Part shown: positions 6,230-22,075 of the stretch, piece after piece
Layout of the letters: each line of letters begins with the position of its first letter
Position numbering within the stretch: position 1 is the stretch's first letter
Source: Candidatus Babeliales bacterium
GTDB lineage: Bacteria > Babelota > Babeliae > Babelales > JABCYS01
Reading direction: 5' to 3'
Assembly (NCBI GenBank): GCA_016929235.1
Contig: JAFGJD010000001.1
Coordinates: 1 to 32,251, forward strand
DNA length: 32,251 bases
Notes under the pieces: model-generated
What the model was told of the DNA's origin: nothing
Database searches by the model: none
What the model saw: only the letters and a program-made list of their open reading frames with translations
Translations under genes and position numbers: made by a program

Positions 6230-6436
6230 AAGTACTTCCTTTTTTTCCAACGCTTTCACACGACAATTATGCGGAACATACCAAAGACAATGCGTCGCTT
6301 TGTGCATTAGCTTATGATACTGGCTCATGAAATACAAGGGATGTTCGTCATCTTACGGTACGTCATAGCAAGATTATTGTTTTAGTGCCAACTTGTGTAG
6401 TAAGATTCGTGTCGAACGGTGGAAAAAGGTGAGAGT

Positions 6437-7045
6437 ATGAAGCGTCATGTTACGCAAGGTTTGTCGCGGTATCGTAATCGCAGAGATTTTAAACAGTCTC
6501 CGGAGCCGCACCGTACACCAAGGCAAAATCTCAAGAGAAAAAATCGTTTTGTCATACAAAAACATGCCGCGAGAAATTTGCACTATGACTTTCGATTGCA
6601 GGTGGGGAATGTTCTTAAATCATGGGCAGTGCCAAAGGGACCATCAATTAATCCTGCAGATAAACGTCTTGCTATTCCAACTGACGATCATCCATTAGCA
6701 TATGCAACCTTTGAAGGTGTTATTCCAAAAGATAACTATGGTGCTGGAGTAGTCATGGTATGGGATATTGGTACGTACAAAAACATTACCAAGCATGATG
6801 GTAAAGCTATTTCTATGGCAAGGGGTTATCGTGAGGGGCATTTAGAATTTGAGCTTTATGGGAAAAAATTGCGGGGTAAGTTTGCGCTTGTGCAAACTGA
6901 AAGCAAGTATAAAGGTAAGCAATATTGGCTCCTTGTTAAGATGAGAGATACGCATGAAGATCGAAGGCGCAAGCCTATTGTTTCGCAGCAGCGATCAGTT
7001 TTGACTGATAGGACTATGGACCAGATCAAACGGGATGAATCATGA
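6437..7045 (+). CDS. Stand-alone LigD 3'-phosphoesterase (PE) module
   Basis: YRNRRDFKQSPEP, FVIQKHAARNLHYDFRL, SWAVPKGPS, DHPLAYATFEGVIP, YGAGVVMVWDIGTY. Start chosen at ATG 6437 (the ORF track uses GTG 6419). Confidence 0.92.
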   Translation: MKRHVTQGLSRYRNRRDFKQSPEPHRTPRQNLKRKNRFVIQKHAARNLHYDFRLQVGNVLKSWAVPKGPSINPADKRLAIPTDDHPLAYATFEGVIPKDNYGAGVVMVWDIGTYKNITKHDGKAISMARGYREGHLEFELYGKKLRGKFALVQTESKYKGKQYWLLVKMRDTHEDRRRKPIVSQQRSVLTDRTMDQIKRDES

Positions 7046-7896
7046 GTCGGGTTATTTTCACTAACAAAGAGAAAGTCTGGTTTTCTAAAACTAAGATAAC
7101 TAAGGGAGACATTCTTGCCTATTACAAGCTTGTTGCTCCTATTATGAGGCCTTATCTTAAGGACCGCCCCTTAGTGATGCAGCGATATCCTGATGGAATC
7201 AAAGGTGAGTCATTTTATCAAAAAGATATTCCCGATTATTTTCCTGATTGGATTCCAAGACTTAAGGTTAAAAAAGAGGGCGGGACCGTTACCCACGTGC
7301 TCTGCAATACTTCAGATACGTTGCTGTACATTGTAAATCAGGGGTGCCTGACGCCACACATTTGGCTCAGTAAAAAACCAAATATTCGTAAGCCAGACCG
7401 TATGATTTTTGATTTAGATCCTTCGTCACGTGGTTTTGGGCCTGTTGTTGATGCGGCGCATAGATTAAAGGTTGAGCTTGAAGATAGGGGCTTAGTTCCT
7501 TTTGTTATGACGACAGGCTCTCGAGGTGTACATGTAGTGGTTCCTCTGAAACCATCGGTTTCGTTTATGCAAGTAAAACGTTTTGCAAAGAATGTCGCGA
7601 GGACGTTGTGTGAAAAATATCCCGATGAAGTAACTCTAGAAACTCGTAAAGCAAAACGAAGAGCTCGTTTATATATTGATGTGATGCGGAATGCATATGC
7701 GCAAACAGGTGTGTGTCCATATGCCGTACGAGCATTACCTGAAGCACCAGTTGCTACGCCACTTTTGTGGAAAGAGCTTACAAAACGTATCTCTGCCCAT
7801 TCTTATACGATCAAGTCAATCAAACGACGCCTTAAAACTAAAGCGAATCCTTGGAGAGATTTCGTTCGATCTGCGCGTATGTTACCTCGTCTTTAA
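7042..7896 (+). CDS. Stand-alone LigD-type primase-polymerase (AEP) module
   Basis: RPLVMQRYPDGI, FYQK, PDRMIFDLDP (DxD), TTGSRGVHVVVP, YIDVMRN, PYAVRA, VATPLLW. ATGA overlap with the PE gene. Confidence 0.92.
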   Translation: MSRVIFTNKEKVWFSKTKITKGDILAYYKLVAPIMRPYLKDRPLVMQRYPDGIKGESFYQKDIPDYFPDWIPRLKVKKEGGTVTHVLCNTSDTLLYIVNQGCLTPHIWLSKKPNIRKPDRMIFDLDPSSRGFGPVVDAAHRLKVELEDRGLVPFVMTTGSRGVHVVVPLKPSVSFMQVKRFAKNVARTLCEKYPDEVTLETRKAKRRARLYIDVMRNAYAQTGVCPYAVRALPEAPVATPLLWKELTKRISAHSYTIKSIKRRLKTKANPWRDFVRSARMLPRL

Positions 7897-17435: not shown

Positions 17436-17565
17436 ACCTCGATCCCTTTTTTATACGAGTTTCACGAGCATTACACTCAAGGTCTACTATATCTGTTTAG
17501 TTTTGTGCAAGAGCTGTGTATATTTTCCCCAATTGGTGTGAGCATATTTGAACGAAGGAGAAAGT

Positions 17566-19206
17566 GTGAGCAGGGTAAGACAATCTACGTTCGTTGTGAT
17601 TATGGTGGGGATGGCCATTCAGATCCACGCCAAACGAGTCTTTAGCAAGTTGGATGATCTTGAGAGCGCTTCGATTGTTGAAGATGCTTCGCTTGTTGTT
17701 GAGGACAAATTGAGTATCGACTTTGCAAAAAAGCGAGAGCGCGTTGTTACTCTAGTGAAAAAGGGAATTACTCATTTGAATAGTGTTGGTCCTGAACGTG
17801 CGTTTAATGACTTTCTTTCTAATCCAAAATTTGTTGATGGAGACGTTCAAATCTTTGTTGATGGGGCGGATGGAGTTGTGTACGTCCGGCCTCCTGTTAG
17901 GGATGATATATGGCTCGATTTTTCGAAATATACCAACGCGCATGGTATTAATATTCAAGAGCTGATTTTAAAGAAGGCTAATCAGGGTGGTGGTTGGGTA
18001 TCGTATGAATGGGACGGGGGTTATAAGGAGTCGTACGTTGAAAAACTGACATATAAAGATACCGCCTACATTATTGGTGCAGGTTGGTATCCAATTTCGC
18101 GCAAAATGGCAGTAGAAAATTTTGTTCGAAGTGCTATTGCATATTTTAATAAGAATGGTGGAGAGGCAGCGTTTAGTGCTTTTTCCAACAAGTTCGGTGA
18201 TTTTATAAAAGGTGATTTATATATTTTTGTTCATGATGTCGATGGGATCGAATTAGCGCATGGTCAAAATCCTTCTTTAGTTGGTGCGGATGTCTCTTGG
18301 GATGAGGGGGTTCGACTTGAAAATGAGATGGGTAAACGCGGTGAATCTGGCTGGGTAGTAGAAAAATGGCGCAATGCTGAAAAACATTCTTTTATTCAGA
18401 TCATAGAGTATAAAGGTAAAAAATGTGTGCTTGGTGCTGGTTACTACCCTGCAACCAATCGGGATAGTGTCGTTGATTTGGTAAAAAGTGGCGTGAAATT
18501 TTTCTACGCGTGGGGGAGAGAAAAAGCTGCTGCCGAATTTAGTAATAGAGGCGGTGATTTAGGAAAATTTATCTCAGGGGAACAGTTTTTGATGATGTGT
18601 CGGTTTGATGGCGTTGTTGTTGCACATGGCGATAATCCAGACATGATAGGTCAAAATATTTTGGAACTTAAAACGCCGATTGGGCGTTACGTAATTAAAG
18701 AAACTATAGAGGTCGCTAAGCGTGGTGGGGGTTGGCTCAAGTATCGTTGGAATGGGGCATTGCTCTATTCTTATGTAGAGAAGGTGAGTGATCAGGATGG
18801 AGATTATTTTATTTCCAATGGATTTTATCCACGAACCCAAGTGCAAGAAGTTGAAAATCTTGTGACGTCGGCAGCTGAGCATCTCAAATGGATGCCGCTC
18901 GAAGAGTCACTTTATGTTTTTGGTCAAAGATCTGGTCAATTTATTCATGGATCCTATCATTTATTCTTATTCACGGAACAAGGTCGATGTCTTTTGTACG
19001 GCGCCAATCATACTTTGGTATGGGAAGACTTTAAAGACTATAAGCTTTCTGATGGTGATACTCTTATAATGCGTATGATTAATAAGGCGAAAAATGGTGG
19101 AGGTTGGTTATCATATGCGTCACGCAACAGCACCAGATGGGTGTATGTGAGAAAAATGAAAAAAGATGGCAAGGAATATATCCTTGGTTCAGGGTTCTAC
19201 GTGTAG
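17566..19206 (+). CDS. Exported protein made of four tandem single-Cache (sCache_2-like) domains, paralog A
   Basis: GTG 17566 after SD AAGGAG; signal-like N-terminus. Four ~120-aa repeats, each with a GW-containing motif (GGGWVSY, ESGWVVE, GGGWLKY, GGGWLSY), ending GAGWYP, GAGYYP, SNGFYP and GSGFYV. Confidence 0.85.
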   Translation: MSRVRQSTFVVIMVGMAIQIHAKRVFSKLDDLESASIVEDASLVVEDKLSIDFAKKRERVVTLVKKGITHLNSVGPERAFNDFLSNPKFVDGDVQIFVDGADGVVYVRPPVRDDIWLDFSKYTNAHGINIQELILKKANQGGGWVSYEWDGGYKESYVEKLTYKDTAYIIGAGWYPISRKMAVENFVRSAIAYFNKNGGEAAFSAFSNKFGDFIKGDLYIFVHDVDGIELAHGQNPSLVGADVSWDEGVRLENEMGKRGESGWVVEKWRNAEKHSFIQIIEYKGKKCVLGAGYYPATNRDSVVDLVKSGVKFFYAWGREKAAAEFSNRGGDLGKFISGEQFLMMCRFDGVVVAHGDNPDMIGQNILELKTPIGRYVIKETIEVAKRGGGWLKYRWNGALLYSYVEKVSDQDGDYFISNGFYPRTQVQEVENLVTSAAEHLKWMPLEESLYVFGQRSGQFIHGSYHLFLFTEQGRCLLYGANHTLVWEDFKDYKLSDGDTLIMRMINKAKNGGGWLSYASRNSTRWVYVRKMKKDGKEYILGSGFYV

Positions 19207-19222
19207 TCAATAGGAGAGTCTG

Positions 19223-20818
19223 ATGAAACGAATTTTACTTTGGTATGTGGTGGCGAGCGTATGGATCATGGTATGCGGGCAGAGTAAGGAGCATATTCAC
19301 ACTATTGGTGAGCAGGTGATTAATGCACATACTAAGTATGAACGGGCAGAAGCATTGGTACACGACGGGGTTGCCTTCTTAAATGAGCACTCGCTTGAAG
19401 ATTCATGTTACGCATTTTTGAATGATCTTGAGTTTATCGATGGTGATATGCAGTTATTTATTATGAATGAAGGTGGTGTGCTTTTATGCGCGCCGCCGTT
19501 TAATGCTCAAGTATGGCAGAATTTACAATCGTATAAGAATGAGCACGGTATTGTTGTTGGTGAATATTTTAGTAGGTATGCAACAGACGAGGGGAACTGG
19601 TTGCAACTTCGGTGGCACGGTGCGTATCAGTCATTTTACGTACAAAGAATAATGAAAAATAAGAAGCAGTATGTGATTGGTTCTGGGTGGGCTCCCATGA
19701 CAGGGGAAGTGGCATCTAAAGATCTAGTAAAACGCATTGTTGCCCATGCGGAACAGTATGGTAAGCATGAGACTTTTCAAGAGATTTCCAACAAGCACGG
19801 AAAGTTTGTTATAGGTGATTTATATGCCTTTGTTTATGATTTTGATGGATATTGTTTAGCAAATGGAGATGATTCTGAACTTATTGGTCAAAGGCTTATT
19901 GGTGATGAAAGAAAAGATAGAGGAATGATTCTTCAGCGAGTGATTGATCTTGCAAAAACGGAAGGTGCTGGTTGGGTTGAGTATATGTGGGAAAATGCGC
20001 CGAAGCGTGCATTTATCAAGCGTGTTCATGATATTGAGGGAGATTATTTAGTTGGAGTTGGGTACTATCCCGGAGATACAAGGGATGTTGTGCTTCGATT
20101 AGTTAGCCAGGCTGTTGATTTTTTCCAAAAACACGGGCTTGAAAAAGCTGCTGCACATTTCAACTATGATCGAGATCCTGATGTAGAGTATGGAGAGTCA
20201 CTTATATTTATGTACCGAACTGATGGATTGGTTCTTGCGCATGGTGAGGATCCTAATTTGGTTGGGCAGAATTTATTATTATTCCAAACGCCTCTTGAAC
20301 AAGAGTCGGCAAAACGCGTTATTGAAATTGCGCAAAAAGGCGGAGGTTGGGTTAAGTATCGTTGGAAGCGTAATACGTTTGTAGCGTATGTGCGTAAGGT
20401 CAGGGATGGCAAAGGAGAATACGTTATTGGTTCAGGATTTTATCCCTATAGTGAGCGACAAACTTCAGAAGATTTAGTAAAGGATGCCATTATACATATT
20501 CATAATACTAAACTTACCTCAGCGCTCAGAGATTTTCTTGTTCAAGGGGATTACAACAAAGGTTCTTATTCTGTGTCAGTTTTCAATGCACAGGGTGATT
20601 GTCTTGTTTATGGTCGAAATGCAGATATGATCTGGAGAAATTTTAAGTTGTTTAAGGATACACGTGGCGTAAATGTGTTTTCCCTTATGAAAAAGGCGGC
20701 AAAAAAAGGTGGTGGCTGGATTACCTATGAGTCTAAGAACGTACAAAAACATGTATACGTGGAGCCGGTGAAAAAGGACGGAAAATGGTTTCTTGTTTCA
20801 TCTGGATTCTACGAGTAG
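19223..20818 (+). CDS. Exported protein made of four tandem single-Cache domains, paralog B
   Basis: SD AGGAG; signal-like MKRILLWYVVASVWIMVCG. Four repeats ending GSGWAP, GVGYYP, GSGFYP and SSGFYE; contains GDLYAFVYDFDGYCLA, typical of sCache_2. Confidence 0.85.
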   Translation: MKRILLWYVVASVWIMVCGQSKEHIHTIGEQVINAHTKYERAEALVHDGVAFLNEHSLEDSCYAFLNDLEFIDGDMQLFIMNEGGVLLCAPPFNAQVWQNLQSYKNEHGIVVGEYFSRYATDEGNWLQLRWHGAYQSFYVQRIMKNKKQYVIGSGWAPMTGEVASKDLVKRIVAHAEQYGKHETFQEISNKHGKFVIGDLYAFVYDFDGYCLANGDDSELIGQRLIGDERKDRGMILQRVIDLAKTEGAGWVEYMWENAPKRAFIKRVHDIEGDYLVGVGYYPGDTRDVVLRLVSQAVDFFQKHGLEKAAAHFNYDRDPDVEYGESLIFMYRTDGLVLAHGEDPNLVGQNLLLFQTPLEQESAKRVIEIAQKGGGWVKYRWKRNTFVAYVRKVRDGKGEYVIGSGFYPYSERQTSEDLVKDAIIHIHNTKLTSALRDFLVQGDYNKGSYSVSVFNAQGDCLVYGRNADMIWRNFKLFKDTRGVNVFSLMKKAAKKGGGWITYESKNVQKHVYVEPVKKDGKWFLVSSGFYE

Positions 20819-20830
20819 GAATGTTTGAGG

Positions 20831-21441
20831 ATGAAACGATTGGAATCCGCTCTGATATTCCTAGTTTCTATACTTTTATTTCATAGAAGCGCGTGCGCAG
20901 CCGTATCAGATGTGTATGAAACGGTTGTTCCACACTGTTTGGAGCATTGCCAACGGTTGTGCAAAAAAATAACTATGCAATTTTACTGAATTTTGGTCAG
21001 TATCTCTGGGTTAAAGATGGGTGTGATGATGCAATTGAAAAAGTGATGACATGCACCTTCGTTCTGCGGTTGGAAGACACCAGCTTTCACCGTTAGGTGT
21101 TGGATTATTTTTTCGTGTTGGATGGGCTCCGAAGAACCAAAACATTATAGATCAGTTTTACAGTATTGGTTTTGGAGGATTTGGAGTATCGGGGCGGATA
21201 GATGATAGGTGGGGTATTGGTTATGCAATGACATACGTATCAAAGAATCTTAGGAACGATCTGATAACGCTTGATAATAATGATTTACATGCAAGCGAAC
21301 ATGCAATTGAGGCATTTTATAATTTACAGGTCGCGCCATCTATACATACAACATTACACATGCAGGCGATTACATCTCCGCTTACAACACAAAGTATTGC
21401 GTTTCCAATGAGCGTAACGCATACAGGTCGATTTTTTTTAG
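20831..21441 (+). pseudogene. Degraded OprB-family (carbohydrate-selective) porin
   Basis: Four colinear pieces in shifting frames: signal peptide MKRLESALIFLVSILLFHRSACA (20831); NNYAILLNFGQYLWV (about 20968); GVGLFFRVGWAP...GRIDDRWGIGY...EHAIEAFYNLQV (21051 ORF); and RIQVDFF-stop (21418..21441). Confidence 0.75.
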
Positions 21442-21457
21442 ACAAGCAGTGCAATTG

Positions 21458-21613
21458 TTATTTTTTACAGCATGTGGAGCATGTGCTTTTCTTGGAGTTG
21501 TGTTTCGTACACAATCCGCAGCATTTTTCACAGTTCTTACTGCATGTCTTAGTGCCAGAACAGCACATGCTACATGCTTTGTTGCATTTTGGACAACACT
21601 TTTTGCAAATCAT
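21458..21613 (-). CDS. Small Cys/Lys-rich metallothionein-like protein (51 aa)
   Basis: Hand translation MICKKCCPKCNKACSMCCSGTKTCSKNCEKCCGLCTKHNSKKSTCSTCCKK: 15 Cys, 12 Lys, no Phe/Tyr/Trp. SD AAGAGGAG upstream of the ATG; TAA stop. Confidence 0.78.
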   Translation of the reverse strand: MICKKCCPKCNKACSMCCSGTKTCSKNCEKCCGLCTKHNSKKSTCSTCCKK

Positions 21614-21789
21614 ATTCTTCTCCTCTTAGCATAAGAATTCCTCTTATATGAATATACTTATGAGCTTCATGTGAAACAAGAATTATGATTTGATTGTTTT
21701 AAATTATGTGAAACAGGAAGACGAAAAAGAGCAGAGTTCTCTTGGTATTGGGTACGTCAGTAGGAGATTAGGTTATTTGTTCGAAATAA

Positions 21790-21881
21790 TGGAGGAGAGA
21801 GAGGGATTCGAACCCTCGATTCCGATCTCTCGGAATAACGGTTTTCAAGACCGCCGCATTCGACCGCTCTGCCATCTCTCC
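21790..21881 (-). tRNA. tRNA-Ser(TGA)
   Basis: GGAGAGA/TCTCTCC acceptor stem, GCGGT-CTTGAAA-ACCGT anticodon arm, long variable arm, GTTCGAATC, encoded CCA. Confidence 0.96.
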
Positions 21882-21891
21882 GGTAAGGTTT

Positions 21892-21968
21892 TGGTGCGCC
21901 CAAAAGGAGTCGAACCTTTAACCTTCAGATCCGTAGTCTGATGCTCTATCCAATTGAGCTATGGGCGC
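21892..21968 (-). tRNA. tRNA-Arg(ACG)
   Basis: GCGCCCA/TGGGCGC acceptor stem, TCAGA-CTACGGA-TCTGA anticodon arm, encoded CCA. Confidence 0.97.
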
Positions 21969-21984
21969 AATATATGTCAATTTA

Positions 21985-22075
21985 TGGTGGAGAGAGAGGG
22001 ATTCGAACCCTCGTGCCCCATTTCTGAGACTCTTGCTTAGCAGGCAAGCGCTATAGACCACTCAGCCATCTCTCC
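21985..22075 (-). tRNA. tRNA-Ser(GCT)
   Basis: GGAGAGA/TCTCTCC acceptor stem, CTTGC-CTGCTAA-GCAAG anticodon arm, long variable arm, encoded CCA. Confidence 0.96.

Follow-up and report, generated by a model that had tools for sequence, protein, structure and literature searches.

The locus downstream of a tRNA cluster

We analysed a window of 32,251 nucleotides from the genome of a Candidatus Babeliales bacterium (labelled G000; 809 kb, 99.3% complete). On the minus strand, the genes for tRNA-Ser(GCT), tRNA-Arg(ACG) and tRNA-Ser(TGA) form a cluster at 21790..22075, and 176 nt downstream of it lies the gene of a metallothionein-like microprotein rich in cysteine and lysine (21458..21613), here called P0001. 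The gene is supported by its translation, by the codon pattern of a homologue and by a copy in a relative that has no indels in the frame. A Shine-Dalgarno sequence, AGGAG, is found at 21620..21624 on the minus strand, 6 nt before the ATG. The preliminary description had called this site strong. In the genome, GGAG precedes the start of only 94 of 3579 small open reading frames (ORFs), compared to 135 of 500 long ones.

The spacer that separates the gene from tRNA-Ser(TGA) (21625..21789, minus strand) is poorly conserved, as 91 other letters replace 159 in the closer relative described below. It contains a 10-nt direct repeat, which accounts for two of six copies in the genome; the other four follow no pattern. 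The spacer includes one weak sigma-70-like match, and a promoter scan did not exceed chance (3 sites, 4.4 expected). Read-through from the upstream tRNA cluster is a possible source of transcription. The cluster is kept in the same-family genomes G002 and G003, but there other genes follow it. Overall, its 3' flank varies among relatives, and in five relatives compared by synteny the microprotein was not seen at the cluster.

On the plus strand, a frameshifted pseudogene of an OprB-family porin (PF04966; 20825..21441), with pieces in three frames, converges on the microprotein gene. A listed plus-strand ORF of 192 aa (21051-21629) overlaps the gene. The PF04966 match is limited to residues 9-110 of this ORF, and porin homology ends at about 21380. 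In comparison to the relative, the porin has a one-base indel at 21416 and other indels near its end. The natural stop of the porin likely lies at 21439-21441, 16 nt from the stop of the microprotein gene. From the limit of the Pfam match and the indel that places the natural stop, we conclude that the 192-aa ORF is an artefact of reading through the pseudogene.

Two further regions of the window may be mentioned. Positions 17548-20818 encode two tandem secreted proteins that consist solely of repeated Cache domains (dCache_2/sCache_2), with no signalling output domain. At 6419-7896, genes resembling the phosphoesterase and polymerase modules of LigD were recognized by inspection as separate ORFs; the homologue of the microprotein follows an ATP-dependent ligase gene.

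Composition of the microprotein

The translation yields 51 aa with 15 Cys, 12 Lys, one His and no Phe, Tyr or Trp, and the CxxCC motif occurs at residues 3-7, 14-18, 28-32 and 45-49, all of which reproduces the preliminary description. The protein has a mass of 5.5 kDa, a pI of 9.1, a GRAVY of -0.46 and a net charge of about +11. It includes no leader, signal peptide, lipobox or hydrophobic segment. Metallothioneins are characterised by low mass, 15-30% Cys and C-X-X-C or C-C motifs (excerpts of PMC12097635 and PMC13578184). P0001 agrees with this in size, in its Cys content of 29% and in the presence of CxxC and CC. It also agrees with metallothioneins in being hydrophilic, in having no aromatic residues and in carrying no export signal.

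The genome contains 7014 ORFs that are 30-100 aa long. None of the others is as rich in Cys as P0001 (fraction 0.29), and no other carries four CxxCC motifs: 6988 have none, 24 have one and one has two. When its residues were shuffled, four motifs arose in 86 of 200,000 cases. Cys density by itself is insufficient as proof of a gene: a frame elsewhere in the genome that has no start reaches 18 Cys per 51 codons, and Ala/Val repeats produce Cys-rich shadow frames.

The gene had been described as unannotated. Indeed, neither P0001 nor its homologue is present among 15 billion predicted proteins, although the same collection contains the GroEL of the P0001 contig and the ligase adjoining the homologue. 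Gene callers thus miss this gene.

A homologue in a different family and evidence of selection

We searched 261 genomes of the phylum for a DNA pattern comprising a Shine-Dalgarno site, ATG and CxxCCxxC, which listed 38 places in 33 genomes. Among these we found one clear homologue, P0008 (60 aa, 16 Cys), in genome G227, which belongs to the same order but to another family (f19). The two proteins share 28 identical columns, including 14 of the 15 Cys, Pro8 and the segment KCCGLCTxH. Cys14 of P0001 is lost in P0008. Since P0008 retains only two strict CxxCC motifs, next to one CxCC and one CxCCC variant, the four CxxCC motifs are not a conserved feature. Neither protein has a hydrophobic leader or aromatic residues.

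The alignment score was reached by none of 20,000 shuffles, even with the Cys fixed. Identity at the three codon positions is 0.73/0.69/0.29, and different codons are used at 16 of 27 identical residues. All three antisense frames at P0008 carry stops. The P0008 gene has its own Shine-Dalgarno site and a terminator hairpin at its end. It comes after a gene for an ATP-dependent DNA ligase, and its neighbours are unrelated to those of P0001.

The locus is also covered by two sequencing runs. Run X1 has zero differences from the window over 20700-21819 and may be where the window comes from. Two RNA runs of the study behind the best DNA match, in which the organism was not shown to be present, leave the region uncovered. 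In run X2, from another study, a 780-nt contig of a closer relative can be aligned to 21096-21624; it has 74 substitutions and six gap letters, and all six gaps lie outside the microprotein ORF. This copy was judged from its gaps, as 40 of the 74 substitutions are not displayed and its Cys and stop codons are unreadable. The alignment stops at the 5' end of the Shine-Dalgarno site, at 21624, and resumes at the tRNA.

A search for homologues and for Cys conservation had been proposed as a check. As far as sequences can tell, its outcome is that P0001 is a real frame that looks like a translated gene, and the comparison with P0008 shows purifying selection on the Cys, Pro8, KCCGLCTxH and the lysines. 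The conservation of Cys expected of a metallothionein, 14 of 15, is estimated from two full sequences.

Distribution of the family

The family occurs in two of the 261 phylum genomes, which belong to different families; proteins of the same order are labelled Candidatus Dependentiae or TM6 by the sources. Three genomes of the same family as G000 do not show it. No third full member was found with three further DNA patterns and an HMM search over the 261 genomes. Several candidates were rejected. The initial pattern for the phylum lacked stringency, as it matched 237 of the 261 genomes, mostly at Ala/Val repeats in another frame (in the listed first places that were inspected). Three matches of the phylum search are the zinc knuckle of UvrA, a mere resemblance, and the four weak matches obtained by searching 41 genomes with the single protein are all shadow frames.

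When collections of genomes, metagenomes and viruses were scanned with exact patterns, 160 loci resulted (7 + 4 + 75 + 74). Among the 119 stop-free segments scored, only that of G227 is a relative of P0001; these patterns have a fixed spacing and overlook relatives with indels. Scanning viral and metagenome contigs for related loci turned up 16 and 268 stretches with the pattern, none of which was confirmed, and tblastn of plasmids and phages gave no relative. At the protein level, a word-index search found no match for P0001 or for the alignment of both sequences (at lengths close to its own and above), and phmmer against 1.84 billion representatives gave none at E<=0.001. P0001 has no match in Pfam or NCBIfam; against PDB sequences it has a single one, a lectin with E 0.39, and the best values in the ESM Atlas (0.76-0.77) are below the chance range. 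Composition filters weaken such protein searches for Cys-rich peptides. The suggestion that the gene was acquired from a protist host is unsupported, as no relative was found outside the phylum in the collections searched, which did not include protist genomes.

Other Cys-rich proteins of the phylum

The phylum is rich in exported Cys-rich proteins and in lipoproteins rich in Cys and Lys. In family f11, we compared 30 loci (L275-L304) around one conserved anchor gene for a secreted protein. In most of them, the lipoprotein encoded in the next slot is small, rich in Lys and has 1-14 Cys; lipoproteins with Cys-rich tails are found at L284, L297, L298 and L301. At 11 of the 30 loci, we find an unannotated, signal-less Cys/Lys peptide of 30-53 aa with a Shine-Dalgarno site, 11-16 Cys, CxC and CxxC motifs and no Pfam match (for instance L078 1438-1530; L079/L080 1511-1672; L282, L283, L290, L298 and L300). 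Between two of these peptides, 12 codon differences are synonymous and 4 are non-synonymous. The signal-less peptides resemble classical metallothioneins more than P0001 does. We also considered grouping the four f11 peptides that start with KCCPKC with P0001 and rejected this, as their similarity does not reach significance (z 1.4).

Further types of Cys-rich proteins were observed. Acidic peptides of 56-60 aa with 13-15 helically spaced Cys occur in tandem or as four paralogues (L084 1509-1914; L132 981-1163; L134/L241, four copies). They are candidates for half-size copper-storage proteins (Csp), and one has a sub-threshold DUF326 match (E 0.0035). Csp/DUF326-like proteins of 127-148 aa contain 26-34 Cys (L092, L114, L115, L116, L128, L131, L238 3904-4287), well above the 18-19 seen in Csp3s of solved structure. 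OEP, DUF305 and MauE-like genes are among their neighbours, as are an ArsR and two methyltransferases in the case of G227. Two peptides with sites resembling a Shine-Dalgarno sequence are absent from the protein collection: one of 50 aa with repeated CxxC and eight His (L132 1246-1398), and a basic one of 55 aa with 15 Cys in CxxCCxxC units (L117 1411-1578; z 2.6 to P0001). Lastly, signal-peptide proteins with long Cys strings were found at L020/L037 (G056), L065 and L082, and in G000 itself (contig C2, 169182-169643). Some of them form paralogous arrays and have a C-terminal membrane segment, which makes them candidates for host-facing proteins.

Genes for metal handling and peptide modification

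The survey of metal genes in G000 took in ArsR, CsoR, Fur, MerR, CDF, P-type ATPases and DUF326; RND exporters and CopZ were left out of it. ArsR, CsoR, Fur, CDF and DUF326 were not found. The sole P-type ATPase carries a PEGL rather than a CPC-type motif, so that no P1B-type ATPase was found, and the two MerR proteins contain 0 and 2 Cys. No metallothionein Pfam matches P0001. This includes the profile of SmtA/BmtA (PF02069), which detected its control in Synechococcus.

No metal sensor or transporter is encoded near P0001, which has tRNAs and the porin as neighbours, or near P0008, which has the DNA ligase. Linkage to a metal sensor, usual but not obligatory for metallothioneins, is therefore not seen at either locus, and the gene context does not tie P0001 to metals. 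The missing sensors and pumps cut both ways: no known sensor could induce P0001, yet a cell without these pumps has a use for a chelator.

Enzymes of the radical-SAM, MNIO and YcaO types were not found in the 99.3% complete G000, whereas the controls were positive. Not a single radical-SAM domain was found in G000, and all 14 control genomes have one. G227 has two radical-SAM genes, both on contigs other than that of P0008. Beside P0001 and P0008 we found no maturase, peptidase, exporter or LanB/LanC/LanM synthetase.

A putative metallothionein-like metal binder

We consider it probable that P0001 is a cytoplasmic, metallothionein-like binder of metals through its thiols and represents a new and very small family. 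Its membership in the functional class of metallothioneins is putative. Because it has no signal peptide, the protein would be cytoplasmic with reduced thiols. The reducing cytoplasm would keep its 14 conserved Cys, perhaps with His38, as ligands, the Cys in the thiolate form. The thiolates may wrap several soft metal ions in one or two clusters (analogy suggests about 4-5 Zn/Cd or a larger number of Cu(I)), and the lysines could offset the charge of the clusters. P0001 would then buffer or detoxify Zn/Cu in a small genome in which a P1B pump, a CDF exporter and a Csp were not found. Since no ArsR, CsoR or Fur was found, expression is probably constitutive or tied to development, and transcription reading through from the tRNA cluster might drive it. 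That P0001 counters metal poisoning by the host in the vacuole is plausible, though only by analogy. In another system, amoebae deliver toxic Zn into the vacuoles of pathogens (excerpts of PMC7858047), and cultured members of the phylum grow within protists (excerpts of PMC4378268).

Searched with a profile of 13 phylum peptides including P0001, the PDB returned only two sequences at E<=10. Both are metallothioneins, but these matches (E 4 and 7.7) are not significant and are driven by the 11 CxC-type rows of the profile. Several observations speak against the metallothionein-like reading. The Cys spacing is helical and does not follow the CxC pattern of most metallothioneins. The many secreted Cys-rich proteins and Cys/Lys-rich lipoproteins of the phylum indicate that richness in Cys need not mean metal. 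In addition, the family is confined to the two genomes, and metal regulators or transporters were not found beside either gene.

Alternative explanations

P0001 might be a miniature copper store of the Csp type. Short helices with Cys on one face would oligomerise into a bundle that fills with Cu(I); such a bundle is pre-formed and lined with Cys, in contrast to an unfolded apo-peptide that folds around its metal. Csp proteins take their Cys ligands from helices, with CXXXC sites (excerpts of PMC5171941). The Cys of P0001 likewise lie on one helix face with a spacing of 3-4, a feature that the preliminary description did not mention. They recur with a periodicity of 98 degrees both over residues 1-18 (p 0.0004) and over residues 22-39 (p 0.008). 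The conserved core of P0008 (residues 27-45) has the same periodicity (p 0.01), compared to about 150 degrees in the CxC-type peptides of the phylum. Furthermore, the unit CxxxCxxCCxxC recurs in the DUF326-positive proteins of 127-148 aa and in the acidic 56-60-aa peptides, to one of which P0001 has a z of 4.3. AlphaFold2 predicts helices at residues 2-6, 14-17, 26-39 and 45-48 (pLDDT 70.7). The helix at 26-39 would have 14 residues; the other three, with 4-5 residues, speak against the bundle, as do the invariant Pro8 and Gly33 and the missing Cys14 of the first helical unit in P0008. This model was built from two sequences; Foldseek found no match for it, and the best fold match by VIA has a Z of 3.0, with no Csp among the fold matches. 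The DUF326 profile (PF03860) matches neither P0001 nor P0008 while it matches other phylum proteins, and P0001 does not reach half of the length of a Csp. It is also too short, and too broken by Pro and Gly, for a four-helix bundle of one chain. We regard this explanation as unlikely.

A combination of both ideas can be proposed, which we consider tentative and rather doubtful. P0001 would be a helical mini-metallothionein, standing between the metallothioneins and the four-helix copper-storage proteins. It would belong to an overlooked Cys-rich repertoire (CxC-type, acidic half-Csp-type, His/CxxC-type and 33-Cys Csp-like proteins) by which the Dependentiae sequester metals where the usual sensors and efflux pumps are missing from their reduced genomes.

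The Cys/Lys-rich lipoproteins of the phylum, which the preliminary description did not mention, open a structural rival. P0001 could have a role other than metal binding in the infectious stage, either as an OmcA-like disulfide cross-linker of the envelope or as a basic, Cys-cross-linked peptide that compacts the nucleoid. The high positive charge is consistent with this, as is the f11 gene slot, which holds either Lys-rich lipoproteins or signal-less Cys/Lys peptides, some of them starting M-A-C-..-KCCPKC like P0001. Babela has a developmental cycle and secreted beta-barrels with Cys-rich N-termini (excerpts of PMC4378268), and OmcA is a cross-linked lipoprotein with 15% Cys (excerpts of PMC1403754). 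The similarity to the f11 peptides is nonetheless within chance, and neither P0001 nor P0008 carries the signal peptide or lipobox by which it should reach an oxidising compartment. The exact Cys spacing and KCCGLCTxH are retained, which resembles a defined cluster fold more than a random cross-linker. This role thus appears rather improbable.

It is very unlikely that P0001 is delivered to the protist host, where its Cys clusters beside lysines would be S-acylated or scavenge host metal. Signal-peptide proteins with Cys strings exist in G000 and its relatives, but P0001 has no export signal, hydrophobic segment or eukaryote-like domain. Similarly, we give little credence to a carrier or store of iron-sulfur clusters. 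The motif CxxxCxxC is present at residues 10-17 and 24-31, yet the first is broken in P0008, there is no Pfam match to ferredoxin, YkgJ/CxxCxxCC or radical SAM, and G000 contains no radical SAM enzyme.

A link to radical-SAM maturases had been named as evidence that would point to a RiPP precursor, and no such link was found. A precursor of the sactipeptide, ranthipeptide or MNIO-modified type is highly improbable: P0001 is small and Cys-rich and G227 does have its two radical-SAM genes, but the Cys begin at residue 3 with no leader before them, radical-SAM, MNIO and YcaO enzymes were not found in G000, and no maturase, peptidase or exporter lies beside either copy. Lastly, that P0001 is a shadow of the porin antisense strand or a chance ORF is hardly credible, although it sits inside the listed plus-strand ORF and shadow frames can be very Cys-rich, since porin homology and the natural porin stop both end before the gene, and P0008 lies beside other genes, at a place where the antisense frames are closed and the third codon positions have diverged.

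Comparison with known systems

Metal-binding peptides of bacteria offer the closest comparisons for a metallothionein-like P0001. MymT, the copper metallothionein of Mycobacterium tuberculosis, has seven Cys and is induced by copper through a repressor of the CsoR family. Linkage to a metal regulator is known for smtA/smtB and mymT, unlike the loci of P0001 and P0008. MymT has no sequence match to P0001, which has about twice as many Cys, and its CsoR-type regulation is unmatched in G000, where CsoR was not found. SmtA and BmtA (PF02069) feature a zinc-finger motif and an aromatic core, which P0001 does not have. They are similar to it in length and in the availability of both Cys and His as ligands; P0001 differs in having CC doublets and 15 Cys, and it has neither a PF02069 match nor an SmtB/ArsR partner.

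MymT and P0001 are alike in several other respects: both are Cys-rich, about 5 kDa in size and cytoplasmic, in the case of P0001 by prediction, both were missed by annotation, with MymT first known as a non-annotated 4.9-kDa ORF, and both come from bacteria whose hosts are phagocytic cells (excerpts of PMC7558416). Characterised bacterial metallothioneins are few according to excerpts of PMC7558416 and PMC13578184. P0001 had been described as unlike the known bacterial families, which is borne out by a metallothionein-like composition that no profile matches. Among the papers listed in the literature searched, we found no metallothionein described for Dependentiae, TM6 or Babela and no report on Cys-rich proteins under the name Babelota, although supplementary or review tables could still list one.

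Eukaryotic metallothioneins (mammalian, sea urchin, ciliate and fungal) share with P0001 the Cys content, the abundance of Lys, Ser and Thr, the missing aromatic residues and the C-C and C-X-X-C motifs (excerpts of PMC12097635). P0001 differs from them in having no CxC at all and no significant match. The one instance of CxxCC in a metallothionein that the literature search brought up is a motif engineered into PMCd1 of Paramecium.

Csp3 proteins (DUF326, PF03860) resemble P0001 in their cytosolic location, predicted in the case of P0001, with Cys 3-4 apart on a helix face, CXXXC units and a His near a helix end. They are tetramers of four-helix bundles with more than 100 residues (excerpts of PMC5171941 and PMC7558416), whereas P0001 has 51 aa, is basic, is broken by Pro and Gly and has no PF03860 match. 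The chlamydial OmcA is likewise small and rich in Cys, and it too comes from a bacterium that is obligately intracellular and passes through a developmental cycle. It is a lipoprotein with an SPII signal and is co-transcribed with OmcB (excerpts of PMC1403754); neither P0001 nor P0008 has an SPII signal peptide with a lipobox, and no large Cys-rich partner lies beside P0001.

By the tests run, P0001 falls outside SmtA/BmtA, Csp and OmcA, and it most probably works like a metallothionein. The surprise is tempered by a family of two full members with no metal gene context. Nevertheless, P0001, which at 51 residues is within reach of chemical synthesis, would allow a new arrangement of Cys, with CC doublets in a helical register, to be tested directly. 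It bears on whether small Cys-rich peptides grade into Csp bundles, and it makes testable whether protist parasites with reduced genomes handle Zn/Cu by sequestration.
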